From Haplodiscus bocki (lineage: Eukaryota): a DNA stretch of 64,000 nucleotides. The notes beneath the pieces were generated by a model. The model saw only the letters and a program-made list of their open reading frames with translations, did no database searches and was not told the origin of the DNA. A program made the position numbers and the translations under genes. The stretch lies in NCBI GenBank assembly GCA_965655095.1, contig OZ296650.1, positions 35,154,001-35,218,000 on the forward strand, in the 5' to 3' direction. This document shows positions 33,521 through 62,200 of the stretch, in pieces. The stretch's first letter is position 1. Each line of letters begins with the position of its first letter.

Positions 33521-33522
33521 AG

Positions 33523-34299: not shown

Positions 34300-34617
34300 C
34301 CGATTTATATCAATATAAAACGTTTTTGGAACCTAAAAAACTGGCCTGTTGTTGTTTTTGAGTTGGTGAGTTTGAGCAGAACCTGTGGCACCTATGTGAC
34401 CGTTTGATAAGCAGTCAAGCACCTGCGGTTCTCTGTGGAACGAATTAACCTGGTAGTTGGTGTGAGGTCCAGCTGAGTGGAGTTGAACGTTGGGATGGCG
34501 ATCACCAGCGCCTCTTCTCACACTAGATCTGCTGGGCCACCACGGCTGCCCAGGAACACATTTCAAAAATCTCTGAAAGTATTTAATAAGTTTATCACAA
34601 CAATTAGGCTAGGTTAG

Positions 34618-35645: not shown

Positions 35646-36004
35646 ATTATTATTTAAAGGTATCACTTTTCTATACGTAGTTATCTGAACTTGAGTAGTA
35701 CAGATAGGGATTTTCCTACTCCAGGCGCTTTAGTAAGGAGGTAGTCGTCTAGCAGTCAAGCCCGATTCTTTCTTTAGTTCCAGAAAATGATGCCTCCCTC
35801 AAAAATGGAAAACAGCGGAATGTACTATTGAGGAAATAGGTTTTAGTCCAGTTATTACCCTCCGGTTCTGAGTCAGGCTGTTGGCCTATTTCAGTCAATT
35901 CATTACATCTTTTTTGGCGTCTAATGCCTAGCATGTGTGATACCTGTGTTTTTTTTCAGATTTACGCTGTTAATACGTTATGAAGTAGACTGCATTTAGA
36001 TTTA

Positions 36005-36533
36005 ATGAGCGATCTGAATTTCGAGAAGCTTGGAAAAATTGGCCAAGGACAGTATGGAGTTGTATATAAAGCTAGAATGGTTGCAACCGGACATGAAGTA
36101 GCCTTGAAACGTATCTTGATTGATGAGTACGATGGTATTCCTTCCACAGCTTTGAGAGAAGTTTCGCTCTTACAAGATCTTAAGCATCAAAATATTGTGA
36201 AATTGATAGATGTACTGCATGTCGATGCGAAGTTTTATTTAGTTTTCGAGCTACTTGAAATGGATCTGGGACAGCTTCTGAAGTCAGCCCGTCCCGATGT
36301 GTTCCCGATAGAAGTAACCAAGTCTTTATTCAAGCAGCTGATCGAGGGTTTATACTATTGTCACTCTAGAAGAATCTTGCATAGAGATATTAAGCCTCAA
36401 AATCTACTTTTGAGTTCCGAGGGAGTCCTGAAACTAGCTGACTTTGGACTGGCGCGTTTGTTTTCACTTCCATTGCGGGCCCTTACGACTGAAGTTGTTA
36501 CTTTATGGTACCGGCCACCAGAAGTTTTGTTTG
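36005..36533 (+). CDS. First coding exon of a CDK1/2/3-like cyclin-dependent kinase (subdomains I-VIII)
   Basis: [36 protein letters not shown] and [11 protein letters not shown], with no lesions. Acceptor TTTTTTCAG ends at 35959 and donor G|GTGAGT is at 36533/36534. The ORF-track tail past 36533 is intronic. Downstream exons were not found in the window. Confidence 0.9.
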
Positions 36534-36604
36534 GTGAGTTTCCACTTTTCCCACTGGAATGCCAATCACTATTGCAGTGTTAAACGGTATTACATTGAGA
36601 TCTC

Positions 36605-40100: not shown

Positions 40101-41417
40101 TACGGCGAGAACGCTCTCTTCACATTCTGTCTGCTCTGACCATTTCCCTCGCCCTGTAAACGTAAGATCAAGCGCGTAATGACCAGATTTCGTGATTAGC
40201 ATCTCATTTGGAGTTTTCTGGTCAAAAACAGGAACTGCATCGTTAATGGTGTCGATAACAGCCTTCATACGTTTCATGGCACTTTTGCTAAATAAAAGCG
40301 GGAGGTTCCCGTCAATCACATCAACCACTATAAAACATCTAACAGTGCATATTTCAACAGGCAACCGAATCTTGTATTTCGACCATGATGATTTTCCATC
40401 TCCAAACACAAATTTCGTTTGGGTATCGATTTTCTTAACCCTTTTTCTTGCAGTCTCAGGAAGCGATGCGATAAATCTGCTAATCCATGGATCACCACAT
40501 ACGCTCGAAGTACATGCGGTGTCCAGAATTCCGCGATTCTTTGTAGAGGTATCGACATCAGATCTGTTATTGTGTACAATAGCGCTCTTATTGCACCCTG
40601 CTTCCACAATATGGACACTTTCCACGACATCCACAGTTTCCCCACCATTTGTGTCTCGATCAGGGCAATTGCGGTACCAATGATTCACTTAACCGCAATA
40701 CGAACATCTCGTGATTCGGCCATCTTTGCCGAGAGGATTACGTCCTTGCTGCTTGGGTCCTTTTGAATACGGCCTATCCCGCTGATCCGCATTCTTCTGA
40801 TAAAAACCTTTGCGTTTTTGTCTTGCAGATGTTAAATACACAGGTTCTTCCTTGATCTCTGAAAAATTTGTTCCAACAACTTGGCGTTCGCAATCACCAA
40901 ATATACGTCTCATTGCTGATTTCATCGATTCATACTTTAGCTCCTGAGACGCCGTGAGCGCCATTGGTCGTTCCCGTATATCAAGAGCGGCATTTTCGAG
41001 TAATTTATAAGCGAGAATCTCATCTGGAAGCTCCATTTTGTGAGTCTTTGCCTTCTCATACAGGCGTTCGAATTCCAATATGTACGCAGTAATGGACATA
41101 CCCTCTCTCCGGACACAAATTTCGAAGTTCTTATATGCTTCGTAAGCACAATCCACTTGGTCCCGCTTAAAACTCTTGTCCAGTTTTTCAAAAAGCTTGT
41201 CTATTCCATTATCATCATGCAGGTCGTCTGCAGGTATAGAGAGAGCAATCTGCCTGGGCCTGCCAGTAAGTCGCAGCGCAATTGTAGGTGCCTGCTGTTT
41301 CTTGGTCATGGAAGTGATCCTCCTCCAGATATCAATTTCGTTCCTCCAAGTGGAGTAATCCGTCTTCTCTGTGTCTCCGAGTGTTGGCGGGGTCTTTGGT
41401 GAGCAAGGTTCCGTCAT
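37103..41417 (-). pseudogene. Copia gag-pol polyprotein, disrupted
   Basis: gag 40689-41417 with CCHC knuckle CSYCG*VNHWYRNC broken by TAA; PR/INT 38778-40688 (HVQFAH..CKIC, MDL, VDNGREF, NGLCER); RT/RNase H fragments at 38115-38366 and 37103-38029 (FADASF, YSDNKSL, QLANCLTK); at least 3 frameshifts. Confidence 0.92.
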
Positions 41418-41418
41418 C

Positions 41419-41427
41419 CTGCTACCA
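41419..41427 (-). promoter_or_regulatory. Primer-binding site for tRNA-iMet
   Basis: TGGTAGCAG, 1 nt after the LTR, is complementary to the 3' end (..CTGCTACCA) of animal initiator tRNA-Met. Confidence 0.85.
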
Positions 41428-41428
41428 A

Positions 41429-41557
41429 TGTTTCTGGTAAAAAACTGGGTAGATAAAATAGGTCAATTCAGCTGAATATAGTAAGACCCCACACAACGAT
41501 CGTTCATTAATCTGGAATACCAGTTACAAATTACAACACTAATTAATCAATGAAACA
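41429..41557 (-). repeat. Copia 5' LTR (129 bp)
   Basis: Direct repeat of 36605-36735, TGTTTC...GAAACA. Confidence 0.95.
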
Positions 41558-43942
41558 GTCTCTACCTTAAAGCAAATTAGCATCAAAAGTACTCTAACCC
41601 GAAGGTCTCAAGTCGGTGCTGCCGGTAAGGCTCGCAATATGTTACGGTGTATATGGTAGAAGTTGCTATATTTTGAATATCGGCATTATTTCCATCATTT
41701 GGACCTGTTTTATGCGCGTAGGTGCTTCTTGAACAATTTTGAGCATTTTGCTGAAACTATAAGTGAACCCTTAGCAGTGAGTTTTACGAAAAGTCACGGT
41801 CATAGTCGGGCACTTTTCTAAAAGGACCGACCTTGAGACCGTTCCAGGATGGCATTTTGATTCCCGATAGTGAGGAGGAAAGGCGGACGGCCGTCCCCGC
41901 CTACGGTCGGCGAGCAAGCTCCAACCATTTCGATAGTGATTTTTAACCCAGTATCTCTACTCATTCTTTATGAAAGGAAGAAAGTGTATTGGAAACCGGC
42001 TTATGCTTAGTTTTTAGGCGAGCGAAGCGAAGCCTATTCGCATAAGGACACGCAAAAAAGATTTCGTTTTTTCCCGTTCATGACATCCCTCTGCGTTTCA
42101 TCTCTTCAAATCCAATTTTCTCGGCACCTGTTGGTCGCTTTTTTCCGATTTTTGTATAAACACCATGAAAGGTTCACGATCTATCATGTTCCAAATTTTC
42201 GGACGCCGAAAGTTTTTTTCCAACGAAAAATAACTCAATTCTCGGAGTTTTTTAGAGGGCAAAGGGTATTTTTTTGAGTCATCTTTACAGGAATCTTGGA
42301 AATGCTAATGTTCTCGCATTAATCGTTGGAGCACCATTCAGCTGACTGGCGTGCTGTGATATTTTTGCCGATTTGCAGAGCGGACATTTTTGAATTTTTT
42401 CGAAACAGATTTGACAATCCCCATTGCCCACTGCGTTTCTTAATTTTGACTCTCATTTTCTACAAACGCATTTCTAGGATCCGTTTACTTTTTGCTTAGC
42501 TGCACTGGCAACGTAGTGATTGATCGGAGCCAAAGTTTTCGGTGGCCAAATATTTTTCGCCGGCGAGTTTTTGGCGAAAACAATTGAAAACCCAAATTTT
42601 TTCAGAAGGAAAGTGTTACTTTGTTGCACTTCTCTGGCCTAATATCCCATGCATGGCTTCTCAATGCTGATTAGGAGATGGAATATGAAGCGTTAGTTGC
42701 TTTCACTTTTTAGTGGATAATTTACTGGTTTTTCACAATATTTTTGCAGAAAATTTTTGTCCAAAAAATGAATTTTTAAATAAATTTCTGTATTATCTAA
42801 AGTTAGGCGCGTTCACCATGCCTCAAAGTGATGCATATCACTTGAATTGAGGAACCGTTCCTACAGCTGATTGTGTCACAAAGAACAGAATCTGACTGTT
42901 GCCTCCGATCCATGTCAGAGTATTGATTTCCAGAGGGAGGAAGGAATCCATCCATATACGTCACAGGAATGACTGGTGTAAAGTATCATCAGTGAAATCA
43001 TCAATTATCTTGTTTGTGACCAAAATCTGTGTTCCATATTCCAAGTTAAGTGACTTCTGCATTGATCAATGGGAAGTCATAGCGAGTATAGCTTCCTTTG
43101 TTTGTAATTGTTTCACCAGACATCACGGTTGTCTGCATGCCAGCAAAAGATTTTACCACGAAATGTTTTTATTCAGTCGAAGTAGCCTGTACTTTTTTGG
43201 GCAAAAGTCAAGAATTTCCAAGGGCACATAAGTTTCCCTCAGTAGATGTCTTTGGGAAAATTAGAAGGTCGTTGTTGTTCAGCTTCATTGAAAAGTCCGC
43301 AGGCATTTCATAAGATGAGCTAGATTCAGTGTCCAATACAGGTAATTTCATCTGTTGAAACAAATCGAAAGAACTACAAATTTGATGGTTATTTCTCTCT
43401 TTCATGAGTCTCTCCACCTTCACTGTCTTTCTATTGACAGCGTGTGATTTGTGCATGTTTGTTTGGTTAATGGTAGAGTGAACTGTATACTGTAGGCAAA
43501 TGAAGAACCATTCAAACTCTCAATAACGGCGGTAACTTGCAGAAGGTTTCCGGGAGCGTGCTTCAATGTTTGATGCAAAACTTTCTGTTGGATGTGGTGC
43601 CAAACTCTGATAAGTGTCATCCGGGATGTCCATAAATCGGTAACAGCCACATCTCAAAGCTCTTATCTTCTTCGTTAAGTGCAATCGGGGTGTGATTGCA
43701 TGATACAGAGAAACGGTTGCGGCATGTTGAAAGACAGACATGAATTCTTTATCTGTCGATATCCATACACAGTCGTACAAAGTCCACAATAGTTTTATCT
43801 TCATCTTTTTTTCTGCAAGTAGTAATTGATCATGTCATGAACACCGTGACAACCCTGACTCAGTACGTCCTGCTTTGTAGTCGATTTACATACACTCGGT
43901 AGGAACGTGTAACGTTCTACTGCTCACCTCTATGTAACATGC

Positions 43943-44469
43943 TGTAAGATTGCTGCGGGGGTTGTTGATATAGATCTTTGATATCTTTTCCCTTCTAGTC
44001 TTAAGACTTCAATTCCTTCTTTAGTGGCTATCTTCAGCGCGTGGCGTGAGGAAAATTTTCTTTATCTTGATTGAAGAATTTATCTCAGGAATATAGTGAA
44101 CTATTCAGTAGCAATCCCAAAATCTGCTGTCTCTCCTTAAATCTCTTATTTACAGCTTCATAAATTATCCAATCTATTTTTTGTCATCATGCGGAAATTA
44201 GAGTTCAATATAAGTTTATCTTCAATATCTCTTCTTTGCATTTAATTTCCATGCGGTTATTACATATTTATTTCTTGCCCTCTGATTTATTAGTTGTTTA
44301 TTTTTCCGGATATTAATATTTCCGGTTAGGGGAGGGTTCGTTGTCAAGAAAAGGTACATCAAAGAATCTAGTAACTCCTAGGTTTGATGAATTAAAATTG
44401 AATTAGATTGAGATCATGCTTTCCCAATTAGATTATAATTAATCTTAGAATAGTCGTTAAAATATTACA
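43943..44469 (-). repeat. Gypsy 3' LTR (527 bp)
   Basis: About 98% identical to 56324-56854 (roughly 9 substitutions and one poly-G indel by eye). Confidence 0.95.
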
Positions 44470-44552
44470 CTAGCCGACTTTAAGTTTTATTCTCCGGTTC
44501 TATTTTTCTTTGATGAAATATTATCCATGCTTTCTAACAGGTTACTTCTTCT

Positions 44553-46650
44553 TTAAACTCGGTGCATTTGTCGACTGAGATGTGCATATGTGGGTGCACT
44601 TTCTTCTCTTGTATCCATCAGTTGAGATTCGGTTAGTAGTAAGCTTTGATTACGCCATTGAATATTTTCATCATTCTTACCCGATCCAAGTGTTGGTCTT
44701 CTACCACCATTATTGGTTTTGGGGGATTTTTTTGTCCAGTTTGTGAGAGAAGGGTTGGAATGTGTGGAGTTTTTCGTAGCGGTGTAGCGCAAACATTAGT
44801 CCCAAGTGTAGTACCGCACTAACGTTGAATACTGCAATTCCAATAACCAAATGACTTTTCCACGATAAATAGTTATTGAATTGTTTTTCAAAAGAGGGCT
44901 TTAGCATTGTTAGTTTCTGTGCGATGGGTTCAGCTATTTGTTGGATGTTCTTTTTGTAGCCATATTGTGGTTGGGCTTGAAGTTCGAGTTTGACCGACTT
45001 CAATAGTTTCATATTAGCCTCCACTTTCGTATTGTAGTAAGGTAGTTCATCCACTGTTGGTAGTAGGCTGAACAAGTGTGCCATTGGTTGAGGCAGTTCC
45101 ACGTCCCGTTTGACTGGTGGGACTTTTGCACATGACGATAGGTCAGACCGGATTCTGATATTTTCACCATTTAACTGTTTACCACATTCTAGCGTTATTA
45201 CGCAGATTCTACATCCTTTGACTGTTTTCGAACCTGCCAGTGTTGTAGCGTCCATATAATTTTCTTTGAATTCGAAGTTGGCCTGGGCTGATGAAGTTAA
45301 GAGCCATATTCCATATCCCAGGTTTGTTGCTTTGACTTTCAGTGGTAGTGGGACTGGGACTGTATCACAGACTTCTAACGCATTCATAATTTCTCCAAAA
45401 TATGAAATTGCGAGGCATGACGAGTCTTTATTTTCTGTTGCCAAAGTTTCATGGCATATTCGATACTTGCTTGAGCCAATACATTTGTCAAGTTGATCTC
45501 TCGTTACTAGCGAAGTTTTCAAGTTTTTTGACACTGCCAATTGTTCTGCTTCCATATCCCATTTAATTGCCGTGTCTTCGTCCATTTGGGGTAGAAGCAC
45601 CCTTATTGCTTTGTACACTGTGAATGCTGTTTGTCGTGCTGCAAATGGGGTTGCCATTGTCATCAAAAGACCCTGATCCAGAGTGAATACGTCCAATAGT
45701 AGGCGTGATTCATAATATGCCAGAAGTTCTTGTTTTGGAGTGGCCAGTGTAAGTCGGCTATCCGACTTCTCTTGTGAGTCGTCAACCACTTTCAAAATTT
45801 GTTCCAAAGAGTCTTTGGGTAGTAGTGACATGGCAATATATTTTGAAAGTAAAGAGAATAGCGTTCATTATGTTCATCTGGAATGCGAATAGAGGGGCGC
45901 GATAGGCCTTGACATTGCTGTAGATTAGCGAAAATAGGGAAGATTTTGTATCAAAATTGAAGTTCACCTGTTGTAGTGTGTATGAGAGTTGATCGCAATT
46001 ACGCATGTCGTGAATATTATCGTGGAGTGTTTGAAATTGTTTGTCGATCTATTGCCAGTTCTCATTTTGGGTTTCTATAATTTGGGTTTAGATTTCATGA
46101 AGCAGGGCTAAATCCTTCGCGGCACGGAAAAATTTCTCATCGGTTTCATTTGCAAGTTGTTGTGAGTTATCTCCAGTGGCTATTGTATATTTTCCTAACT
46201 TTTCAATGTTTTTGGCATTCGTTTTGGCCTTTTCTTGGCACGAAACGGCTGCTATAGGTAGTGCTCTTCTAGACCTTTGGTTTTTCTTGATTTCGGTTCC
46301 CTTCAGGAAGGAGGATACCGCTTGTTTTATTTTAGTCAGGTCGTCCTCAGCGAACGCTATTTCTTTTTTTGTTTCTTTTAGAAGCCAGTCTACTTTGAAT
46401 TCGTTTTCGCCTGTGTTTGTGAAATTAACAAACACCGATAGGTCGTCATTTGCCACATGTTCTGTAATTCTTTTGCAACTTTGTCGAGGCTTTCCGTTAG
46501 TTGAATGTCAAATTTTTGATAGGGGCTGAGAATTGGGCGTTTACATATTTTTCGCCCGAGTATTTTTGTCTCTTCATGAAAGAATACTCCTCGTTCAAGA
46601 CTACCGTTATCATTTGTTGCTACTAGTATAAATAGCAAAAGTAGAATCAT
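44553..46650 (-). pseudogene. env-like class I fusion glycoprotein, disrupted
   Basis: Signal peptide MILLLLFILVA; furin site RSRR|ALPIAAV (46265-46276); heptad-like helices; Cys-rich region in ORF 44710-45831; TM segment LVIGIAVFNVSAVLHLGLMFAL; located just before the 3' LTR. Confidence 0.85.
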
Positions 46651-46755
46651 TATGGGGGCTGTTTTTGTTGAAGGTTGTATTAATTAATACCTTTGATTAT
46701 TGGAATACTGTTAGAACACAGATGGTTTGGGGATATATTTGCAATTTAAGTTGCT

Positions 46756-47090
46756 TTAAAGTTCGTCTTCTAGATAGTCCAACAGTTCTTCTAGTTTGTA
46801 TTTGAACGTTGATTCTAACTTCAATGATTTGTAGTGTTTGCTCAGGGTATCATAGAGGCTGTCGTGTTCAATTGTGTCACTTTCAATTTCCATATAGTAG
46901 GGTTCATTGTGGGGTTTGAAGAGAAGACTCTCATTCGAATGAAGGGACAGCATCCACATTGTTGTAATTGAATATTATTGATATAAATTGGGTTGTTTTC
47001 GGGTGGTGTCCACTGTAGGAGTACTTTGAATTGTAATTGAATTGGGGTAAGTTGCCAATGAACTGTAATTGTTTTTCCATATGTATTCAC
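46756..47090 (-). pseudogene. Gypsy accessory ORF C (one frameshift), paralogue of ORF A
   Basis: ORFs 46842-47090 and 46756-46959 join to give QFKVLLQWTPPENNPIYINNIQLQQCGCCPFIRM../..EIESDTIEHDSLYDTLSKHYKS..KLEELLDYLEDEL. Confidence 0.6.
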
Positions 47091-47481
47091 TGTTAGGTCT
47101 TCGAAATAATTTTTTATTTCAATTTGGAAGGGTTTATCAGAATTTCAAACTTCTCCAGCCACTCTTAGATGATTTTTTTTGCCATGCAAAAAATTTGAAA
47201 TTCAGGAGCTTTCGTTTTCTTAAAGAAGGAGAATGAGTAACTGACTGCTGGAGATTAGGTTGTAGAATGATTGTCGCAATAAAAAGGGAATTGTAGTTCC
47301 GTGGATACACATTCGGTGTTTTGACGGATATTAAAGTTGATTTGGACGGGACTTCGCCGGATATTAAATTTTGTTGGTACGGATATTTAAATGTGTCCGG
47401 TCAGATATGAACAGGTTGTCAGAGCTGTCATGGTTTTTGCTGGATCATGGAATGCAATTGTTAGTGTTGCAGTGCAGCCAA

Positions 47482-47766
47482 TTAGGTTTTTTCATTAATT
47501 TGATTTCCCATGAATTGAACTAAGGCATCCAGTTCAGTCGGATGAGGAGATGTATACAGACGTAACAATTTGTAGAGGCTAACGAATTTCTCGATTGTTG
47601 TGGAAATATCGAAGATCGCTTTTTAGCCATTGTTCATGTTAGGTTCGCTGATTGAAAGTCTCAGAGGTGCACAATAGGAGCATTTTTGCCATTGAATTCG
47701 GTGTATCGTAAGCAGTGTATCTTTTCCAGGTGGTTTCCATTGTAAGTTGACGTCAAATTTGTCCAT
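47482..47766 (-). pseudogene. Gypsy accessory ORF A (~94 aa, one internal stop), unknown function
   Basis: MDKFDVNLQWKPPGKDTLLTIHRIQWQKCSYCAPLRL..G*KAIFDISTTIEKFVSLYKLLRLYTSPHPTELDALVQFMGNQINEKT; homologous to ORF C. Confidence 0.6.
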
Positions 47767-49904
47767 TTGTCGTGTTTTTTGCCTTTTTTGTCGGTTCCCA
47801 CAATGGGTAAAAAATTGTAGAAGTGTCGTTTTTACGGGCGGATCGCTAGAGGTAATTTAGCTGTTGGTTGTTTTTGCGGCGGATATTAATGTCGGCGGCG
47901 TGTTAGGTGTCCTCTGAAGTTTTTTTGGCTGTTTTCTCAGTTGTAACCTTATTTAAACATTGTCGTTTAACTGGAAATGAGTTTAATTTATTTTATTTGA
48001 TGAGGTAATAAGCTTTCTGTTGCCTGTTGTAAAGTGACCAGTTGTTTTGGGGCTTTGGCGATCTGCTGTATTACATGTTTCTGATTTATGCTATTGTTTT
48101 TCAGAGAATGGAATGTTCATTTGTTACTTTGTTCGCCGACGCCATCCTGGAATGTTGCGATGATGGAACAACCGTTTTGGCGGGGCTCACGAAGGGTGAT
48201 TTTCTCTCATCGTGATCCGGAGTGTCCGGGTGTAAGTTCTGGCAGTCTCTAGCTACTGGTTATGAACTGGAAGTGGGGAAGTTTGTCCTTCTAGGGGTTT
48301 CGTCCCTGTTGTTCTTCTGCGTTCTGTTGTTCTTTTGGTTACAGGGAAGAAAGAACAGACAGCATGAGAGACTGTGAGGGCAGACTAACTGTTTTATTTG
48401 CAGTTCGTGCAGTGTCATTGCTGAGTTTAGTTTGATACTGTAGTTAGATTACTATCGTTTAGGTGTAGGCGTTGTGTTAGTTAATTGGAAGTGATTTGCA
48501 AATTGGATGTGTATCTTTTTTGTTTTTGAAAGGAAAAAATTTGCAATTGGAATTTAATTTCACTCACTTGGTTAGTGAGCTTCTTTAAAAATAAGTCTAT
48601 GAAGGTGTATTCTTCTGTGTGTGTGTTTCTTACAATTCATGGGCATGCAACGCAATGTTGCTACTTTTCAGAGTTTAGAATGGAAAGGTATAATCTACTT
48701 CAGTTTCTGCTCGGACAATTTCAGTCTGTGGAGGAGGCTGTCAAGTGTGACAGTCCATGTATTGTGAAGGGAGTCAGTTGTTCTTACAAGTCAGTGAAAC
48801 ATCAAGCGTTAGCTCTAAATTGCATTAATGTTCGTCAGTTATTACGATACTTCAAAAATTGGGGCGAGGACAAACCTAATTTATGTGCATTTCCTGAAAC
48901 AAGGGTATTGACTGCACTAATACCGCGTATTGAAAATTTGCAAAGATATGATTCATGATTTAACAGTTCTATAATACCCGTGAGTTCAGTTCATGACCCT
49001 ATTCTGGTAGCAACGGGTAATTGTGTAACTGGGTTGCACAGAGACGTTGGTCCCCCGACAGAAGTTATTGCCTCGCTTTTACGGGGTTGGAAAATCTGGG
49101 TATTTGCCTCCAAAGGGTTCCAGGAAGTGCTGGAATGTGACTAGGGGGAGCAAAGAGCGTATCCATCAGGGATTACGTGGAAAAATGAGGGGCGTCACTC
49201 GAAAGAGGTTTGGCTCTCGAAAACATCGGACCGTTCCCAAAAAGCTCGGTTAGTTTAGTATTTGTTCTAAATGATGATTCCCTTATCATCATTTAGATTA
49301 AATATTAAACTCTGTTATTAGGCTCTGTTTTTCGTTAGATATAATTTATTTTTGCATAATCCGAGATTCCTTATATCCTATCGAAACAAGCTTTGTATTA
49401 GGCGTTCGGGAAGGTATGATGTGTTGGCCTCACTCACTAATCTTAGGCAGTCGAAGTCCGCGTTCGGCCATTTTCATAGGGTGAACACTTTTTGCTCAAA
49501 TTTTGCCAAAAGTATAGTTGTTTTGTGAGCAATAGGTTAGGCCTAGTATCCTACTGTAATCGGCGTTTTCTGTGCTTGATGCTGGAGTATATAGGACTGC
49601 ACTAAAGCTATTTGGTCTCAGTCGAAGTGCGCGTTTGTTGATGACTAGCATGGCTTTTGAGGTGTTTTTGGACTTCATTGCAAAACTGGTTCCATTGTTG
49701 TCAATGTTGCTGGGTAAAAACCTGTCCCTGACATACAGAAATATTTCATTCCGCGGGTTTTCCGGGGTGTTTTTTGTCGTCAACTCTTGTACTTTTTGTG
49801 GTCTTCAAGATGTTGGGAATTTTTTTTGGGCCTTTTTTTGTCTCTTTGCCAATCTTTTTCGTTTCAGTGTCTGTTCAGCCGTTCCGTTTCAATACCTTAT
49901 CGTT

Positions 49905-50321
49905 TCTAATACAAACTGTTATACATACATTCGTCTGTTGGAAAACTTCGTGTAGAGTTTTGTGCACTATTGGTGATTGAAGTTTGTCTGGGCCACATCC
50001 AAGTTTTGGTAGTCGAATGTTTTTCACGCGGTGAGCCTCAGCGTGATTGCGCATCAAGATAAGGCTGTTCCTCAATGCATCATAGAAGGGTTTGTGGAAG
50101 TATTTTGGTTTCGTTACCAAATTGTATAACCATCTTCGTGAATAAAAGTCGTAAAATGCTAACACTGATTCTGGTGTTATTTTTTTGCAGGCTTCTCTTT
50201 TCATTTTTGGGTAGAGTCGGTCGAATCGCTTAGCAATACCTGCTCCCATGAAAAAATCGGAAGGAACACAGTGTCCCATGCTAGATGAAGTTCGAAAAAC
50301 GTCGTCTTGTACTATTGTCAC
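49905..50321 (-). other. TARG1/OARD1 (Poa1p-like) macrodomain fused to the integrase C-terminus
   Basis: GHCVPSDFFMGAGIAKRF..LYNLVTKPKYFHKPFYDALRNSL..RLPKLGCGPDKL matches the family pattern HCxSxDxxMGAGIA / LxTK / KPTY / PRIGCGLDxL. Confidence 0.88.
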
Positions 50322-53300
50322 TTGTGAGGTTTTCTTAGGTGCTTGTATTTCGTTCAAGTTAGTCCTACTTCTTTCCGAAGTCGTTCCTTCTTGGGTTGCG
50401 CCTAGTCTTTGTACAAACTGCATTTGCTGTTGTTGCTGTCGACGGTTATTGAGAAAATCCACAAAGTTTCTGGCTTCTACCGATTGTCCTTGATTTGTTC
50501 GTTTACTGCTGCAGGTTTGTTGGAATTGTTGTCCTGCCACTTCAAGAACACGTTCACCTAACCGTTTGGTCTGTTGTTCTTGTATCCTTGTTGAGCGTCT
50601 CGGTGCTGTATTGTTTTCCGCATATTCATCAGATTCTTCTGAAGCGTCCGGCAAATGAGCTGTGAGGTAAGGCGGTGGTGTAAGTATTCTTCTAAGTTGT
50701 TCAGCTCTAGGAGCTTGATGAACTGTTATTGGTTCTACTGTCACAGCTGCGGCGTCGGGTTGATTGACTATTTGTGCTGGCAGTGGTTGTTGAGCTTGTG
50801 CTCCAAAAGAGATTAAGACTCGAACTGGGCTGTCCAAAGTCGGAGTTTTCTTTTCCGGCGCCACTTGGTCTTTATCCAGGAGAGAAGGGAGACCGTTGTC
50901 AAAGAAGTCTTGATCGCCTCTGTAACATCCCATTGTTGGGTCTGTCTGAAAGTTTTCCGAGTTGATGTCCTCTATGTCTGTTACCTGATTTTGAGGTTTG
51001 ATTGGACGTAGTCTAATTCGGTGGACAATTCGTGTATAATTGGTTCCAGTTTTTCTGATGAGATAGTTAGATTCGGTTAAAACTCTCTGCACTCTATACA
51101 GAGCAAGCCATTTTTGGATAAGTTTCGGGCTGGAAACTGATTGTTCTGTGAGTCGGGGGTTCAGCAATAAGCAATATGTGTGTTCTGTCAGGGGATTTGC
51201 CCTTGCCTTTTGGTCGTAATACCTCCTGTATCTGTTGAAAGATTTCGTGAGACTTTCCTTTGTATTCTGGACTTTCTTCAGCATTTCATCTCTGTGATTC
51301 CACAAAGTCATAGTTGAATGCTGATTTCTGGAAACAGTTGCTGTAGAAACGAATATCCAAAAGCGTCACCGGGTCTCGTCCATGGAATATCACCGTTGGT
51401 GCGCATCCAATTGAGGTATGATAAGATGTGTTATGGATGAATGTTGCTAAGTTTAAGTATTTGTGCCAATTTGTGAAGGTCTGGTTGCTATTTAAATTCA
51501 GGATTCGCGTTAGTGCTGCATGTGCTCTTTCTACGACACCTATTGTTTGTGGCTGTTTCAATGATGCATGAGATATTTTGATTTCGAGTGGTCGGTTGAG
51601 TGCATGGAAAAGTTCAGACACAAACTGTGTGCCTAAGTCTGAGAGTATTTCCTGTGGTATGTATTTGTGTTGGAACATAATGGGAACTAAGGCTGTTGCC
51701 ACTGAGATTGCACTTTTTTTAGTCAGCGGTGTTGCAAATGGGTATTTAGTGAGAACATCAATAGCTGTCAGAACGTACTTTTACGGTGACGATGGAAATG
51801 GTCCCAGAATGTCTATCTGCATTAGTTCTCCTGGGAACGATTTCAATGTAGGAACTTCTTGCAGTCGTAGTCTAAATCGTGAGGGTTGTACTTGCTTTAT
51901 TTGGAGGCATGTGGAACAATTTCTGATTTAATCTGCTACTAATTCCACATAGTTTGGGCAATAGAAGCGATTTCTGATTTCCTGGATGGTTCGCGTTATT
52001 CCCAAGTGTCCTCCAGTTGGGGCGTTGTGTATTCTGTACATTTTTTCAACATTGTTTTTGGCCCGCACAATTATTTGTACAACATTTTGCCATCGTGTGC
52101 AAAGTATCGCCTGTAGAGTGTTCCATTCTCTATATAATCTTCGTAACTGCTTGAGGTACTTTTGTTCTATAGAGTAAATGGTGGTTGTAGGTGCGGACTC
52201 GGTTTCCATCCATTTGAGCACTTTTGCTATCACGGAATCCGAATTTTGTTCCTTTTTCAGGTTTGTAATTGTTGTTTCCAGTTCGGGGTAGTCGTCCATC
52301 GGGTTTGTGTGTTGGGTGGCGTTCATTTCCGTTGTTTTCCTGTTGTATTTTGTCAATTGTAGTTCTTTATCTGATGTCAAACTTTTTAGCTGGTTTACTG
52401 CCTGAGCATAGTGTCCGGATTGTTTTAGGGTTATTAGTGTGTTTATATCGACTACGTGGAGTAGGTCAACCGGTAAATTGTCTGCAAAGAGCTCATTGAT
52501 TGTATTGTCTGGTAGCTCTGGTCGTACATCTATTTCAATTTCTCTGATTGAGATTCTGTCCGTAAGTTTCAATTCAATTGTTTTATTCGGGTTTGATTGC
52601 AAATGAGATAGGAAATCTGCTGCAGCATTGGCTTTTCCTGGAATGTGAGTTACCACAATGTTAAATGCTGTTACTAAATCCACATAATTCCAAAGTGATG
52701 GGGGAATTCTTTTGGCTTGGAAGAATCTGGTCAAACTTTTGTTGTCAGTCAGTATGAATACTGGTTTTTCACTTCCCCATATCAAATGAGAAAACGTTTC
52801 CAAGGCAAAGGAAAGAGATAAGAATTCCTTGCAGTATATTGACATCTTTATTTGCGCTGTATTGAAAACTTTAGATTCGAATGAGACGGGTGCATAAGAG
52901 TTAACAGTTTCTCCTTTGTTGTCTTTGACGTAGTCTTCGATCATTAGTACAAATCCGCTGAAGTGGTAACTAGCGTCACAAAGGATGGCGTATTGCATTC
53001 CCGGTTTGGCGAGTCGAAGAGTTTGTGTTGTGGTGGTTTGAAGTTTTTCTCGTAGTACTTTAAATGCATTCTCAATTTCATCTGTTATTTCAAACGAGAC
53101 ATTTTTGCGCAAATGTTTGTAGAAGGGTATGAGGTGTTCGTTCAGGTTCGGGATGAAGCTTCGAAAGAATTGTAGGAAACCTATTAGCCGTTTTACTTGT
53201 TTCACTGATTTTGATCTTTCGAGTTTCTCTTAGAAACTTTTCGATTTTGCCTTTTTCAAGTCGTAAGCTCTTTGTTATGACATTTCCAAGGAAACTAACT

Positions 53301-55132
53301 TTTTCTGATCCAAAGACACATTTTTCTGGCGATAGTTTGAGTCCTTATCTGCGTAAGCTTTTGAAGTTTTGTCGTAAATTGGGTATGAGTTGTTCAACTG
53401 ATTCCGCTCCACATCCAAAATCATCCATGAACTGTGTACAAACATTTGCTGAGAGATGTGGCTCTAAGTAGTTTTTCACAAAAGCACTGAAGCCTGTAAC
53501 TGATCTGTTCAGACCTCTAGCTAGTCTTTGGTAAGCCATAGTTCGGGAAGCAAAATTGAATGCAAGCAGCTGTACCGAAAGAGGGTCAGCCATTCTTACA
53601 CAATGGTAGGCTTGAGAGCAATCTAATTTACAAAAGATTGATTTTCCAGCAAAATGCGCTGTTGTGTCTGCCATTGTTGAAATCGGGAAATTGTTGTTAT
53701 GATAATCATGTAAGAGAAGGTGGTTAATTCGGCGTAGGTCCACTAGAATTCTGAGCTCCCCATTTGATTTGCGGTGTGCAAAGATTGGGCTACTGTATTT
53801 TGAATGGTTGAGGCTTGTAATGATTCCGAAATAATGTAAGAGGGCAAGCTCTACTTGTAGTTCTTCACGTAAGTGAATCGGCGTTGGTGGGCTTTGGGTG
53901 TAGACCGGTTGGTCATGTTCTGGGGTTAGCTTCATTGAAATCTCAGAGTTATATCCAACATCAAATCAATGTTTAGCAAAAATATCCGAAAATTTTATCA
54001 AAAAGTCTTCAATTTGCTGTCTTTCATCCACTTTAAGTATAGATTCGTTCCATTTGAATCTCTGTAGAAACTGGTTACGGTATTCATCATTAATATATGG
54101 GTCTATACTGTCTAGTTCTCTTAGCTTCTCTAGTTCATTGTAGATTTTCTTAACACTTTTCAGTGCTGTGGGGTTCTTGCATGTTCCTGGCGTTGGGAAC
54201 CAGAATCTTTTGTAGTCGGGTTTTTGTCGAGGTGGTTAAAAATCTGCATCAAATTCTTCGTCAATTATCAGCTGGATGATTTTTTTATCAAAGTCGTCTA
54301 GAGTTTTTGAATTTGGCCAATGTTAGTAGTTGTGGCTCTATCGGGGTTAACGTTTCCGCTTGTTGAAGTGAGAGAAATTTGAAAAATGCATTGTCCGAGT
54401 TTCGGGGAATAGTAATTTCTTTGGTTTGAAGGTTTAGGGCAGATAAGTACAAGTTTCCGTCAGAGTCAGTTCGTGATAATGGAGAAGTAATGCACAGTCC
54501 TGTTTTTTCTTCAAAGCTCACTTTTGGTTCTACAATACCACATACATCAGCAAATCGTTTGCTTTTCATTTGGAGGTTGCATTTTAATATAGCTTCTTGG
54601 TTGGGGGCACTAAAGCATTTTTCCATTGTTCTAATAGGGTATTGGGGTTTTCCGGATTTATCAGTTTGTGTTGATATTTCGTTCAACTGCAGCCTTAAGT
54701 CGGGTAATCTCATCAGATTCTTTCTGGGGTAAAGTTGAATGGAGTTGTTTTTGAAAAATGGATTTCCTAAAATGATACTGGTCGTGTTTGGAAGTACTAA
54801 GAAATGTTCTTTGAAATAATTTTTTGCTATTGAAAATTCGAGTTCGATTTGGCCACGCACAGGTATAAGTTGTCCTGAAGCTAATTCAACTTTACTGACC
54901 TCAGAAGGTTTTGAGATGGTCACTGTCGTTCCAAAAGATGATTTCAGGTCCTCGTAGTCTTTTTCACTGATCGCATTTGCACAGGCACCAGTATCTATCA
55001 GTGCTTTCCTTTGTTGGTTGTTAGGGAACTTCAGTGGAACATATGATAGGACATCACCTTCAAGAGAAATGCATGCTGTTTTTTCGTTTTGGTCATCCGT
55101 CTTCTCTCGTTGTTTTTCACACTGGCGTGGCT

Positions 55133-56281
55133 TCACTCGTTTTTTGGTGCGGTTTGATATGGTATTTGTTGGTTTCCGTTCGCTGGTCTCCATTGGTTAC
55201 AATCTCTTGCGTAGTGGTTTGGGTAACCACAAATGTAACATACCAGTTTGGAATATGTAGTTTCCGCTATATGCTCTCGTTTGGTCGATTCCTGGGTTTG
55301 AGGTGAATTATAGTTGGAATAGGAACTGTAGTCCTTACGGTTTTGATTACCATTGAAAAAACCTCTGTTATTATTGAAACGCCCTCGTCCTCTGTTGTTG
55401 GAATATCCTCGTCCTCTGAATCCTCGTTGGTTGTTGAATCTGTAATTGCCGCGCTGTGAGGGATTAAAACCACTATTACTACCATTGGAAATTTGGTGGC
55501 TTGGGAGGTGGAGAGTTGATTCTATTAGATAAGTCTGTTTGTTGTTGTTTCAGTTCATCTTGTTGCTGTGTAAGTTTTGTTAATGCCCCTACTAAGTTTT
55601 CTGAAAGTGTTGAAATAACCTCATTGAAGGCATATTTCGTCCAGTCGTCATTTGGACAAAGTTCGAAGAATACCATTTGGAGTCTTGCAACTGTATAAAG
55701 GTCTTGCACCGTTGCTGCCTCATTTTGGTCCATTAGCTTTTTTTTGATAAAATTTGGCATGGCGTTCGTGAAGATTTCCTTGATTCTCCTGTTTCGCTCA
55801 TTAACTGCATTGTCTAGTACTGCTTGGTTGGCATTTTGTGCGTTCTGGACTCTGTCAATTTCTGCTTGTTCATTCGGTGGGTTAGCTGGCGGAATTGGTG
55901 GTAACACTGGATCGGGTAAGCTTGTGTTGCTTTTATCTGAACTTGTTCCAAGAAGTCTTCTGGACTACCATGCTCTTGGTCAAATTCTAAGTTGTGAAGC
56001 TGTAGTATGTGGAGTTCTCGGAGGTTTGGGTTGCAGTAATGATTTCTCAGTGCCGTTATTGCTGCATCAAAGTCATCTCTGGTTGCTTGTGGTAAAGTTC
56101 GGAAGAACTGCAGGGCTTGGTCTAATAAGTGAAGTTGAAGAAACTGGGGTCGGTTGGCATTTGGGATAGTGCCAACATTAATGAGACTTTTGACAAGACT
56201 TTCGAAATCTGGCCAGTTTTCATCTGCTTTTCCGCTGAATGGGCTGAGAGTAATATGTGGTTGTGGATTTGCTGCTGCCAT
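55133..56281 (-). pseudogene. Gypsy gag (capsid, RG/N-rich region, CCHC knuckle), frameshifted
   Basis: PFSGKADENWPDF..LHLLDQALQFFRTL (retrotransposon capsid); RGFRGRGYSNNRGRGRF; CYICGYPNHYARDC at ~55198-55239; stop TGA at 55133-55135. Confidence 0.85.
55139..55145 (-). promoter_or_regulatory. -1 ribosomal frameshift heptamer A AAA AAC at the gag-pol junction
   Basis: gag codons CCA AAA AAC GAG TGA place the heptamer in X XXY YYZ phase; the protease ORF (54288-55193) is in the -1 frame. Confidence 0.75.
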
Positions 56282-56323
56282 TGTTTTCGGATAGTTGTAT
56301 TCCTCACTTCCTCCTTGTCACCA

Positions 56324-56854
56324 TTTAAGATTCCTGGGGGGGGGGGTCGTTGATATAGATCTTTGATATCTTTTCCCTTCTAGTCTTAAGACTTCAACTC
56401 CTTCTTTAGTGGCTATCTTCAGCGCGTGGCGTGAGGAAAATTTTCTTTATCTTGATTGAAGAATTTATCTCAGGAATATAGTGAACTATTCAGTAGCAAT
56501 CCCAAAATCTGCTGTCTCTCCTTAAATCTCTTATTTACAGCTTCATAAATTATCCAATCTATTTTTTGTCATCATGCGGAAATTAGAGTTCAATATAAGT
56601 TTATCTTCAATATCTCTTCTTTGCATTTAATTTCCATGCGGTTATTACATATTTATTTCTTGCCCTCTGATTTATTAGTTGTTTATTTTTCCGGATATTA
56701 ATATTTCCGGTTAGGGGAGGGTTCGTTGTCAAGAAAAGGTACATCAAAGAATCTAGTAGCTCCTAGGTTTGATGAATTAAAATTGAATTAGATTGAGATC
56801 ATGCTTTCCCAATTAGATTGTAATTAATCTTAGAATATTCGTTAGAATATTACA
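56324..56854 (-). repeat. Gypsy 5' LTR (531 bp)
   Basis: Direct repeat of 43943-44469; followed on the minus strand by TGGTGACAAGGAGG (PBS position) and the gag ATG at 56281. Confidence 0.95.
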
Positions 56855-59249
56855 CATGCTCATTAACTTTTCGCCAAATTGACTGGAATGGGAGTCATTT
56901 TTCGGCTTACTGGTTTTGACAATGTGAAGCTGTTGTTATAGAGATGCAAGTCGTTGAGGTTTGTTCTTCGCAATTTTGAACGAAGAGGGTTGTGGGCAGG
57001 ATGAACATTCTTTGCAGAATCTCCTGTGTGATGACTACAAGCCGTTTAGAGTAGGTTTCCTTCGTCAATACAAATTGGTTGTCTAATCTCAAACCTATTG
57101 AGAAGTGTAAACCCCTGAAGATATGTTGGCAATATTCAGCTACGAAGAGATTGGTCAAGAAAAACGACGTCAAATATTGGATAATGGAAACGATAATTTT
57201 GTCAAAAGATGAAGAATTATCCTTTCAAAGTCAACATCTCAGTCTACTAATATTGGAAAGTGAGGTATCATTCAAATCCTTCTTGATGCGGTCAACTTGA
57301 ACAGCGTTAATTGTTTTCTATTTTGTACGATCTGGTGTTCTTGGCAACTACAAACTTCATCTTGAAGACAATTTTTTTGTTCTGTGAGCCGGCCTCCAAG
57401 ACTGTGAATACATTTCGTTTATGGACTTTGGCAACGGTTTCAGGAGGTTTCGCAAATTTTCCTTCACCGTCTGTCTGTCTCACTTTCTTCCTTCACCAAT
57501 AGTTACAGAATTTACGTGGCCAGGCGTGTTTGAATTTTGTCTAAGTGTTGTGAAGGCAATTAAAACAAAGTTGAACTTACAACAAAATCATCCTGATATG
57601 AGTATGTGTACACCATATCGCGAGCGGGTCTATGTCTCGATTTTTTATATCTCGTGCAGCAATCGGAGGTTCGCAGGCACTTAGTTCAACATGGTTTTGA
57701 TTCCATGGCTGATGTGTCTGATCGAAAACAGCTCTTGGAAAAGATTTGATGTCGTGCCAGAGTTTGTTTTTTAAAATCACTTGTTCATTTTCTTTCGCTG
57801 ATTGGCAGTGATCGGTTTTCGTTTGGCGAAAAAATGTAATCATTATGTCGTATTGTATGGTATTGCATATCTTTTACTCAGGAATAGGTTTTGCTTTTCT
57901 TGTTTCCGATTGAACGGATGTAACAATTTGGTAGTGAGAAGCATTGTGAAACAAGAACACTTGCTGATGAATATCATCGATTGCAGATAAAAACCATATA
58001 CGTTCCTCTAGGAAATTTTATTAGACGAACTCATCCAACCTTGTCACATGCTAAAATGTCGCAGTTTCCAAAGCGCCACCAAAAGATCCTAACTATCTCG
58101 TTTGTAGCAAACGGTCTCCAGGATAATCATCAAATTGACCATTAGACTTGAACAAATGCATAATCGAATGTTGTCGTAGAGTTTGGTGACTGAAGTTTAA
58201 TTTTTTTCCAGTTTCGAAAAACAATTAAGTAGACAATCACTGCGCCTGTAACTTTTTAGGGATTTTGGAAGTAAAGAAGTAACAGGAAATTTAGATTGAA
58301 ATTGCGTTTTATAATGCCTATCATGCCTGCTGCGTAGTTGAAAGCGAAGAGGCAGGTTGTAGTTTTGTACTGACGTTTCTTCTTCCTTGTAGTTTTTGTC
58401 AACGAGAAAGGGCTTCGGTGACATTGCGCCTGTTGCGTTATCCCAACTTGGTTTATATAAGCGAGAGTACTTTTTAATGTTCCTATAAAGTGAGACTAGC
58501 GTAAACCTTTTAAACTTTGTGAAGATGACCCTTCATCAGTCGATGCTTTAACCTGGAAACAAAATGTGTTTTTGTGACTTGGGTTTGGTGTAGTTTATAG
58601 AAATTGAGTGCACGGAAGCATACTTGTGTCGAGTGTTGTAAATGCTATTCGCCGTAGATTTGAATTTTAACCAGCAATTTTTCAGCCTTCTGGACACTTC
58701 CTTCTAATTCCAAAGAAAAAGAGAAAATGTTTTTCTTTTCCTTATAATTTACCAGTAGGAGAATGTCGCACATTTCCCCTTACGTCAGTGATCAGTGAGT
58801 AAATCAGATCTAAAAATCGACAAGTATTTTGAATCCTTGCGTTTAAATAATTCATGAAGTCGTTTCACACATAAAATTCTTGTTAAATGGAGAATGGACT
58901 TCATTCTGTTTTTCTTCCCGATTGATGAACGGGAAGCTCTGGGAAAAATAAATACTCAAGTTGGGTTTTTTTCAAGTTTTACGACATGGAACACGCAGGC
59001 GATATTATCTTGCACTTGACTGCTGACATAATGAAGAGAATTTTTGGCAGCATTTTGTCGATTTTAGAACTCTGAGCAGAAGTTGGGCGCTCGAAGTCTC
59101 CGTCAAGAGGTTGGGAAACTGTCATGCTTTATTTGGCTCGTTTTGATTGGTAACGGTTATTAGGAAGATGCGAGTCCCCTTTCCAGCCCAACTTGTAAAA
59201 GAGCAAGTGATGAAACCTGAATAATAGCCATATGCGAATACTTTTTTGT

Positions 59250-62200
59250 ACAAAAACAACCTGATTACCGGGGAAGTCTGAGAAAAAAGTTTTGAAATTT
59301 GGATTGTATCTAGCTCTTCATTAACAAATCGCTTAAATGGAAAATGGTATCGACACCACAAGCAGTCAATGTGGAGAAAACTTTTAGTTGCAGTAGGGTA
59401 AGTTAAAACGAATTACAGTCTTGGTAGAGTAGTCGTTTGAGGGCCTCGTTCACCAGACGGTCAACATGGATTAACATTCGTCTTTGAGGTGGCCATCCTG
59501 CTTCTTCAAATGTCTTGGTCTGATGACAGTTGCAATATTCTTGGAACCAAGTCCTAGAGCAACATGTAGGATTTCATTTTAACGGGATCTTAATTGCCTT
59601 CCGGACGCATCGAGCCGTTATTAAATCAGAGCTTGCCCAAACCAGTACAATAATTTTAGAGACCTGAGAAAGCTTCCCAACTTTTTTCAAGAATACGGAT
59701 GACCTTTATAATGGTAATGAAAGTACAATGCAAAGGAAACAATTTCTGCCACTTTTAGAAAAATTTGCCGATAAAATAGAATGCACAACTTATAACTTTG
59801 GCTAACGTTGCTTCACCAGTTCCTCGTTGAGGGTTCTTTCGCTCATGCCACCAATTATCAATCCCGCCAGTGATGATTAAGATGACGTTTCAGTTACCAT
59901 TGAATATTTGTCCAATAATGTCGTAGCTTTGGTACTCCCACAGCTAAGAAAATCTACTTCACAACATGTTTTTTACTGGGCCTTTTTGTTTTGTGGTTGC
60001 TTCCGATGACCAATGTTCAATATTTAAATAAACTTAAGTAATTTTGGAACTCTGAGAAAATGTGTCCTGATTTTTTGCTCTTTTAGATCACTTCGTTCAA
60101 ATTGGATGGAGATAATGTATCTGGCTCTATGAATATTTTTTCGAAAATGTTGCCGGAGACAGTTCCAATCACAAGTCGCTCGCCATTACCTGTTAACTAG
60201 TTACTGTGAATTGTCAACTAGTGTTAACTAGTTGACAGTGAAAATAACCTATCAATCAATTTTTCAGTTACCGAGATTTGTCGAAGCTAAATTTGAGTGA
60301 AATTGTTGTAGGGAGTGTCAGTTGCACTGTTTCAGGTTAAACAGCGTGGCATTGATCTCAATTCCCTTGGGTTAATATTTTAACATCTTAGTATTTCCCT
60401 CGTGAAACTCATCCAATTCATTTTCTCTTTCTTATCGTGGTCCTTCTGAAAACATTGTGCAATTTTCATAATTTTCATTTCTGTTGGTTTGATATCAATA
60501 GGTGAAAAGCGTTTTTGTCGATGTTGGTGTTTCTATTGTCTTTTGTTTCTGAGATAACTCTAGATGTACTTTCTATAGTTGATAGATTACAGAATGTTTA
60601 ACTTTTTTCAACGTTTCTTGAACTTGGAATGTTTTGGCATTTCCTGTTGAGACAGTCCACCGTAAGTGGGTCCTTAAAAAAGGACTGTTATCATGACGAA
60701 ACAAAAAAGAGGGAACTTAAAAACCGGAATTTAGCTGTCGAATAGCGACAAAAACTCAGATAGCAGACACTCAGAAACAGTGAAAAAAAAGTCGTAGTAG
60801 CATAGCATTAGCAGAAAAGCGGCACCAAAAAGGACACTTACAAAATGGAAAATAACTTAGTAGGCAGACGTGCAGAACGCATTAAACATCAAAGCAAACA
60901 AAAATACGCATACAAAAAAAACAGCAGTTGAGGAACAGCCGAGTTGAATCAGCAGTTATATATCAGCACAACATCAGATAAACAACATACACCTCAAAAA
61001 AATGGTCGAGCAACGCAAAAAAGCCAGCAAGCAGTCAGTTATTATCCACACTAGGTTAACCGATTTGTGGAACAAAGTGGCGAAAAGCAAACACACAAGA
61101 ACAGAATGGAAAAACTATATGGAAATTGTCATTTGGACTCGACAACCATTGCCAGAGAACAACGTGAGAAAGCATGAAACGGCTGAATGCCACTAGCAGA
61201 AAACAAGCAAAACTCCGGAAATGCCCAAAACAGAACCACTGCAAATACCCATTACATCCTAGACAGGCGGCTAGCGCACTCGCGGACCGTTGTAAATATC
61301 AAACTTTCCAAGATCACAAAAGAGTTGAATGTTTTTCCTGAGGTGATCTTTGTTAAGATTTACGTGCAGAAGAAAGGATAAATGGAAACTCCTTTGTGGG
61401 TTTACTCAGTTGACAGTCAATTCCGATCAAATTTTGAAAACTAGAGCCTACCAAAAAAATCATTAATAATTTTTCAGAAGTATTAGATTTTCGATCAACC
61501 TCAGAAAGTATTGGGTAATAATCGCAAGTTAAGGCAGTCATTTTTTTCAGCAAGGAGATCCAACAACTCAGCAAGTCTTCCTAATGCCAATACAATAATT
61601 GGAAAAAACGTTACGTTGCTTTGTGATTGAACAATACGATATAGACTGACATTAAGAAACGTCGATCAATGTATCCTGTGAAATTTTGACGATTGAATAA
61701 TTTAAAAGCAACCGTATTGAGGTGATGAACAGGTTTTTGGTCCTATTGCTAAAGGTGACAGGCACGCCAGAAAATGTTACAGTGCTGAATCATGTGACAA
61801 CTGTTTATTTTCCCCGAAAACAATTGTTCACACTAGAAAGTCTGAAAAGGTTTCAAAGTTTGGATTGTATCTCGCTCTCAACAATTCGGCTAAACGGAAA
61901 AGGGTATCAACACTGGAAAAAGTTGATGTGGAGAACACTTTTGGTAACAAAAGGGTAAGTTAAAATGTATTACTGTCGTTTGATGTCATGATTCAGAAGG
62001 TCCAACAAGGATTAACAGCTTTCTCTCAGATGGCCATCCTCTTTCTTCAAATGTTTTGTTCTGATGACAGTTGCAATTTCAATGGAACCAAGTCCTAGAT
62101 CCTCAGCTAGGATGTCATTTTTAATGGGAACTTGATATCATTTCTAATGGGAACGAGGAATCAAGCCAAATCAGAGCTTGCCCAAACCAGTACAATGTTT

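Follow-up and report, generated by a model that had tools for sequence, protein, structure and literature searches.

An antisense JmjC gene under purifying selection in an env-carrying Ty3/Gypsy family of Haplodiscus bocki

We analyzed a 64,000-nucleotide stretch of the Haplodiscus bocki genome (contig OZ296650.1, positions 35,154,001 to 35,218,000; hereafter, the window), in which positions 43943-56854 are occupied by a Ty3/Gypsy element on the minus strand, its transcript sense running from 56854 to 43943. It belongs to a Ty3/Gypsy family that carries env and has a selected antisense JmjC gene in the interval between pol and env, and the copy in the window has decayed. From sequence and predicted structure, we consider it about 50% probable that the JmjC protein acts in trans as an anti-silencing lysine demethylase, which would remove repressive histone marks and thereby ease silencing of the element. 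The coordinates of all features are listed in Table 1.

A first-pass annotation of the window had described the pol-env interval as approximately 3.2 kb of small same-strand open reading frames (ORFs). A six-frame scan for selection showed instead that the largest gene of this block, encoding JmjC, and an ORF with a predicted transmembrane helix (aORF2) are antisense to the element; the sense-strand reading of 48500-49250 was rejected by the same scan. Among the small sense ORFs, only orfB and orfD are credible. Frame-specific selection was absent from the ORF at 49496-49804, which was rejected as a gene, and from "orfC". The earlier description of an accessory gene block was right in so far as this block belongs stably to a multi-copy family and is under selection there, but the strand was misread and the antisense JmjC gene was missed.

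When the genome containing the window (1.5 Gb; G000, in which the window lies on contig C3) was searched with the DNA of the block, 56 matches were obtained. All 10 sister loci that were fetched hold at least part of the block at the same position, and eight of them possess a pair of long terminal repeats (LTRs), mostly with a target-site duplication (TSD) of their own. No sister lacking the whole of 46650-49870, the sign of a secondary insertion named in the first-pass annotation, was found among the 10. The JmjC gene yielded 143 matches in the same genome, with identity down to approximately 30%, from which 20 further loci were picked to span the identity range. In all 20, pol is followed by the antisense JmjC gene, a second antisense ORF, and then one or two small sense ORFs; 19 of them also have the macrodomain and env, and 14 have an LTR pair. 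A secondary insertion of the block was rejected on the basis of this common location in the 10 sisters and 20 JmjC loci. Family copies are 12-13 kb long, with a pol-env interval of about 3.2-3.5 kb that contains the extra genes, and each of the 18 copies with listed ORFs is broken at some point. Large, near-identical tandem duplications, which may be assembly artefacts, were observed in or beside family copies (at L027-L028, L057-L058, and L025-L026; two of them 99.8-99.9% identical).

Purifying selection acts on the antisense JmjC gene in the frame that encodes the protein. We estimated the ratio of nonsynonymous to synonymous substitution (dN/dS) with a nucleotide-based scan of all six frames, using variants shared among 12 subfamily-A copies and Fisher's test. 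Protein-guided pairwise estimates were biased low and saturated between subfamilies, and we therefore relied on the nucleotide-based scan. In the JmjC frame, dN/dS was 0.15 (76 synonymous and 39 nonsynonymous shared variants; p = 1e-10), compared with 0.32 in the mirror frame and 0.74 for singletons; the ratios of the four remaining frames were 1.15-1.88. The same pattern was observed in gag (0.10), pol (0.10-0.14), the macrodomain (0.15), and env (0.13-0.17). Further, the JmjC tree follows the element subfamilies. For aORF2, dN/dS was 0.23 (p = 0.011, subfamily A). Selection on orfB and orfD was not significant within subfamily A, and the case for these two genes rests therefore mainly on retention across subfamilies, as was seen for orfB. 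None of orfB, orfD, and aORF2 had a significant match in Pfam, PDB, or Atlas. The gap between aORF2 and JmjC (approximately 48380-48660) contains very few shared variants, with a low ratio in two frames (0.16 on 15 variants); a small exon or regulatory signals may be located there.

The 273-amino-acid antisense frame is fully open in two sister copies and matches JmjC. The Pfam JmjC match of one sister copy (E = 8.5e-5) falls just under the cut-off, and 22 of 36 aligned family members match this domain, with a best E-value of 1.7e-7. In the alignment of these 36 relatives, the HxD motif is kept in at least 90% of rows, and the family members have a basic tail in common. Folding of a single sequence gave a pLDDT of 33, and we used instead an AlphaFold model built from the alignment (pLDDT 79), which adopts a JmjC fold with the predicted double-stranded beta-helix. 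The HxD/E...H triad and the Thr and Lys that bind 2-oxoglutarate (2OG) are present; in 24 copies that hold the gene, the first His is retained in 21, Asp in 23, the distal His in 22, Lys in 23, and Thr in 21. An Atlas search with a 49% relative returned JmjC clusters. All 64 database matches at E <= 0.001 are short proteins (63-301 amino acids), and there is no JmjC protein of cellular length among them.

Related JmjC genes occur in both Ty3/Gypsy and BEL/Pao elements, and the BEL/Pao carriers were seen in two assemblies. A 6.8-kb BEL/Pao element of the window genome (L096:434-7251, G000 C6) with LTRs of approximately 245 bp carries, between pol and the 3' LTR, an open 294-amino-acid antisense relative of the JmjC gene (HHalign, 99%; no Pfam match of its own). 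This JmjC family has 40 matches in the window genome. In nine copies examined, BEL pol adjoins the JmjC gene in eight, LTR pairs are present in six, and the triad is kept in all. Further, a scan with one distant JmjC subgroup returned 17 short contigs, all from one other assembly; in two of these (L062 and L071) the JmjC gene lies antisense directly after a BEL/Pao integrase, and no BEL/Pao neighbor was seen in the other 15, which are mostly shorter than 2 kb. L096 and L062 both possess Peptidase_A17, integrase, DUF5641, and LTRs, as expected of BEL/Pao. Scans of viral contigs revealed no locus with JmjC cargo. In the cargo tree, 5 of 17 branches are starred and the deep relations are unresolved, and we therefore claim neither a donor nor a direction of transfer.

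Two other sets of decayed JmjC loci were observed. A third, more decayed family of small JmjC genes (L078-L089, on G000 C3, C8, C10, and C4) has 47 matches and lies in a shared segment of approximately 1.65 kb. In L081 it adjoins fragments that we take, from their motifs, to resemble a protein-primed B-family DNA polymerase; these fragments had no Pfam or PDB match, and a Polinton-like carrier is possible for this family. At L094-L095 (G000 C5), a decayed JmjC gene of another subgroup lies antisense to BEL integrase remnants, and a separate element there possesses a TARG1-like macrodomain region early in its ORFs.

That the JmjC protein demethylates histone lysines is suggested by its closest matches. 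When the family profile was compared with PDB, PHF8/KDM7 was the best match (E = 4e-5), followed by JMJD6 (E = 4e-3). In the VIA structure comparison, the top rows were PHF2 and KDM2A (Z = 13.6, 214 aligned residues, root-mean-square deviation of approximately 4). The protein shares the T-x-x-H-x-D and G-x-K motifs and the distal His with KDM2, KDM7, PHF8, and PHF2, but is much shorter and possesses a basic tail. JmjC-only KDM4-like genes of endogenized pandoraviruses in Amoebidium (10.1101/2024.01.08.574619) and the active AlkB demethylase of an orchid Gypsy element (PMC9289625) are reported precedents for such a role. In the mechanism that we propose, the JmjC protein would be encoded by an antisense, probably spliced mRNA, perhaps starting in the aORF2-orfB interval from an internal promoter of divergent orientation; some Tor elements of Oikopleura are reported to use an internal promoter for env (PMC4402516). 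By a loose rule, 20 of 23 copies have an acceptor-like motif just ahead of the JmjC ATG, whereas four other ORFs are preceded by one in 0-2 of 22-26 copies, which hints at a spliced antisense mRNA. The basic C-terminal tail may mediate nuclear import or chromatin binding, and the putative substrate is methyl-lysine.

Several observations weigh against a histone demethylase. The identity to any solved JmjC structure is only 12-16%, and a PDB search with the single sequence gave no relevant match. FIH (13.1), JMJD5 (12.9), and TYW5 (12.6) lie within one Z unit of the top VIA rows, and Foldseek ranks TYW5, FIH, and JMJD5 first; assignment to KDM2/KDM7 is favored by the profile, whereas the structure ties with these three enzymes. 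No PHD, CXXC, or other reader domain was found, only JmjC/cupin families being matched, and there is therefore no evident targeting route. The aromatic residue that precedes the LxGxK motif of PHF8 has a role in 2OG binding, and it is not kept in the family alignment. Further, most or all of the JmjC gene is missing from four of the 10 sisters and from 4 of 28 copies examined. Three of the latter four, on three contigs, have a common deletion of approximately 1.27 kb that removes JmjC and aORF2, indicating that neither is needed in cis; this deleted form has multiplied, and JmjC is thus dispensable for mobilization. The frame scan of the BEL family, which was underpowered, gave 0.72 for JmjC on 17 shared variants and 0.50 for pol itself.

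The strongest alternative, which we regard as credible but less probable, is that JmjC is an active protein or RNA hydroxylase similar to FIH, JMJD5, JMJD6, or TYW5 whose targets are restriction factors of the host, ribosomal proteins, or tRNA; frameshifting or priming, for example, might be tuned in this way. The Foldseek ranking, the VIA ties, the JMJD6 profile match, and the small size of a protein without reader domains are consistent with a hydroxylase; the sequence profile, however, prefers PHF8/KDM7 by about 100-fold in E-value, and the family-wide basic tail likewise weighs against a hydroxylase. It is unlikely that the protein is a demethylase or decoy directed at targets other than histones (proteins of the element, RNA or DNA that is methylated, or host silencing proteins), or that it reprograms the host cell instead of de-silencing the element. 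Such targets would fit the lack of a chromatin-targeting domain and the orchid Gypsy 2OG enzyme, which is reported to act on m6A RNA (PMC9289625), and the JmjC genes of LbFV were proposed to alter host expression (PMC5381508); however, the predicted fold is that of JmjC and not of AlkB (VIA Z of 8.5-9.2 for AlkB-type rows against 13.6), and the full retention of ligands argues against a dead decoy. Finally, although all ORFs of the window copy are broken, block deletions are common, and selection on orfB and orfD is not significant within subfamily A, the possibility that the block is passive DNA, either a secondary insertion or a captured host fragment with chance ORFs, is very remote and largely refuted by the constant position and order in the sister and JmjC loci, the frame-specific selection, and the solely short JmjC matches.

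The remainder of the element agrees with an env-carrying member of Ty3/Gypsy. The single insertion described in the first-pass annotation, with a CATGC TSD and LTRs of about 98% identity, was confirmed (518/531 aligned columns, 97.6%). The LTR ends, the TSD, and the tRNA primer-binding site agree with Metaviridae, for which TG...CA ends and a TSD of 4-6 bp are expected; the terminus of the 5' LTR is mutated in the window copy, compared with TTACA in sisters. This copy was rightly called defective, because frameshifts and stops occur in each of its genes and two deletions distinguish it from its sisters (Table 1). Contigs of four sequencing runs, possibly from the source sample, span both junctions when aligned with the element, which has no bearing on expression. 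Separately from the element, a tandem array with a period of approximately 424 bp and tRNA-Leu-like 3' ends was observed at about 161.07-161.14 Mb of G000 C1, and the search pattern has 947 matches genome-wide, compared with 6 for the control.

Pfam domains occur in the order gag/zf-CCHC, protease, reverse transcriptase (RT), one RNase H of the Ty3 type, and integrase, to which a weak match to Macro is added. The start of pol overlaps the end of gag in the -1 frame, and the -1 frameshift proposed previously is supported at the sequence level by a slippery heptamer before the gag stop. After RT we found one RT_RNaseH, a spacer, and the integrase zinc finger, and not the degenerate tether with a second RNase H of retroviruses. 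Compared with PDB, RT matched foamy virus RT (E = 2.5e-26) and Ty3 RT (E = 3e-23); among the RT relatives listed, at least 120, none bears an informative name. The extra C-terminal domain of pol is indeed a macrodomain, of the TARG1/OARD1 type, with homology across the domain and the TK and GCGLD motifs (GCGPD in the window copy). The Lys and Asp of TARG1-type macrodomains are catalytic. The fusion glycoprotein reading of env also held: relatives match Baculo_F, and a sister env possesses a furin site, a fusion-peptide-like stretch, and a transmembrane helix; a signal peptide was judged by eye from the hydrophobic N-terminus of env. The macrodomain may erase ADP-ribose marks as a second counter-defence, and env would allow cell-to-cell spread.

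Table 1. Features of the Ty3/Gypsy element, in window coordinates
Feature	Position	Strand	Remarks and evidence
TSD CATGC, left	43938..43942	.	Sequence
3' LTR	43943..44469	-	Pair 97.6% identical
Polypurine-tract-like site	44470..44481	-	Adjoins 3' LTR; weak but conserved, motif recurs at same site in sisters
env, F-type class I fusion glycoprotein	44553..46650	-	Frameshifts, stops, ~83 bp deletion at ~46245 (fusion-peptide region); Baculo_F matches in relatives
orfD, ~106 aa	46756..47075	-	QxxxCxCC motif; orfB paralogue; frameshifted here; dN/dS 0.32, Fisher p 0.06
"orfC" region, doubtful gene	47140..47488	-	No frame stands out; matched in subfamily-A-like copies only
orfB, ~94 aa	47488..47766	-	orfD paralogue with Cys motif; one stop here; dN/dS 0.44, p 0.24 within subfamily A
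Antisense ORF2 (aORF2), ~100 aa	48075..48375	+	CC..GTT motif; one predicted transmembrane helix; broken here; 20/20 loci
Putative splice-acceptor-like pyrimidine tract + AG	48665..48671	+	Just ahead of JmjC ATG; 20/23 copies, loose rule
Antisense JmjC dioxygenase gene	48680..49253	+	~273 aa in sisters; stop ~48957; ~233 bp deletion at ~49125 removes third iron ligand
pol	49875..55196	-	Protease, RT, one RNase H (Ty3-type), integrase, linker of low complexity, macrodomain; interrupted by several frameshifts and stops; Pfam
TARG1/OARD1-type macrodomain, pol C-terminus	49881..50327	-	PDB 4j5r E 2.8e-20; dN/dS 0.15; 19/20 loci
gag with zf-CCHC	55133..56281	-	Two frameshifts here; Pfam
Slippery heptamer A_AAA_AAC	55139..55145	-	Just ahead of gag stop; predicted -1 frameshift; 20/27 aligned copies
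Primer-binding site	56310..56323	-	Matches host tRNA-Leu(CAG), exactly over 8 nt in the present copy; subfamily B, 11 nt
5' LTR	56324..56854	-	Pair 97.6% identical
TSD CATGC, right	56855..56859	.	Sequence

An env-bearing invertebrate lineage of Metaviridae, which the first-pass annotation considered possibly undescribed, is not novel as such, because Ty3/gypsy elements with F-type env ("ancient errantiviruses") are described across invertebrates (PMC13524379). The present family shares with these elements and with Oikopleura Tor (PMC4402516) the LTR-gag-pol-env order, Ty3/gypsy pol, F-type env with a furin site, and a tRNA-Leu primer-binding site. It differs from the ancient errantiviruses in its pol-env genes and in its length. 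Note that the first filter of that survey admitted pol-env gaps of <=1 kb and lengths of <=10 kb; its text makes no mention of macro, JmjC, or accessory genes, and JmjC does not appear in seven of its supplement files. We found no JmjC-bearing LTR element in our paper searches, although Repbase, subscription journals, and bioRxiv supplements (notably the transposable element-fusion tables, 10.1101/2021.11.30.470311) could hold one. The family combines F-type env and a TARG1 macrodomain with a JmjC gene that is antisense and selected, a cargo also carried by BEL/Pao.

Individual parts of this architecture have reported parallels. A Phalaenopsis Gypsy element carries an AlkB m6A demethylase ORF, likewise a 2OG/Fe(II) dioxygenase proposed as counter-defence in an LTR element; that enzyme, however, is a plant AlkB with an RNA substrate, whereas here an animal element with env carries an antisense JmjC shared with BEL/Pao (PMC9289625). 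Stand-alone JmjC genes occur in other genomic parasites, namely the Amoebidium pandoravirus and LbFV (ORF11/13, PMC5381508), with a proposed role against H3K9 silencing or in host expression; these parasites are large DNA viruses, and their JmjC genes can be traced to lysine demethylases of the host, whereas the present proteins are deeply diverged, 260-300 amino acids long, and carried by retroelements. TET/JBP genes are reported in fungal DNA transposons (PMC12730594). Antisense ORFs 3' of pol are described in plant Retand (PMC11963269), and ORF3s common to different element types in bdelloid LTR elements (PMC5408684), but their cargo is TRP28, a GDSL esterase, or a DEDDy nuclease. Macrodomain genes are known from fish endogenous retroviruses (Basta 2009, as cited in PMC4977317); here the TARG1/OARD1-type domain is fused to the C-terminus of a Ty3/gypsy integrase. 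Lokiretroviruses and complex retroviruses similarly possess F-like env and accessory genes, and the RT of the present family scores as well against foamy virus RT as against Ty3; however, a second RNase H behind a degenerate tether, reported as a mark of lokiretroviruses and Retroviridae (PMC7947760), is lacking here, and the accessory genes lie between pol and env, partly antisense.

Other repeats were observed in the window. A Ty1/copia-like element (37103-41462, minus) contains ORFs for gag, integrase, and RT/RNase H and adjoins a CDK2-like ORF at 35984-36583; a direct repeat of 122 nt belongs to it, with copies at 36617 and 41439. An element at 30749-34332 (minus), with a PHD-bearing ORF1, an endonuclease, and an RT, is presumably a CR1/L2-type long interspersed element, judging from its motifs. 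Near-identical direct repeats of approximately 510 bp (2157-2667 and 4065-4573) are separated by 1.9 kb, and a diverged tandem duplication of approximately 2.4-2.5 kb lies at the window end (59323-64000).

It has long been asked how retrotransposons of animals evade silencing by chromatin, and chromatin enzymes encoded by the elements themselves are rare. The JmjC cargo is a small, natural, and testable enzyme that is under selection in more than 20 copies, and genes related to it, which share its orientation, are spread over two LTR superfamilies and at least two assemblies. Surveys that filter for short pol-env gaps or read the sense strand only would miss such an architecture. The counter-defence kit suggested in the first-pass annotation is plausible, although its central gene was overlooked. 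More tentatively, and at somewhat less than even odds, we propose that the small antisense JmjC enzymes of animal LTR retroelements form one family, both old and mobile, whose function is to erase repressive methylation of histones; that this family has moved among Ty3/Gypsy, BEL/Pao, and perhaps Polinton-like elements; and that it is paired here with an ADP-ribose eraser as the epigenetic counter-defence kit of a retrovirus-like invertebrate lineage. A hydroxylase, by contrast, would point to an unknown step of host restriction.

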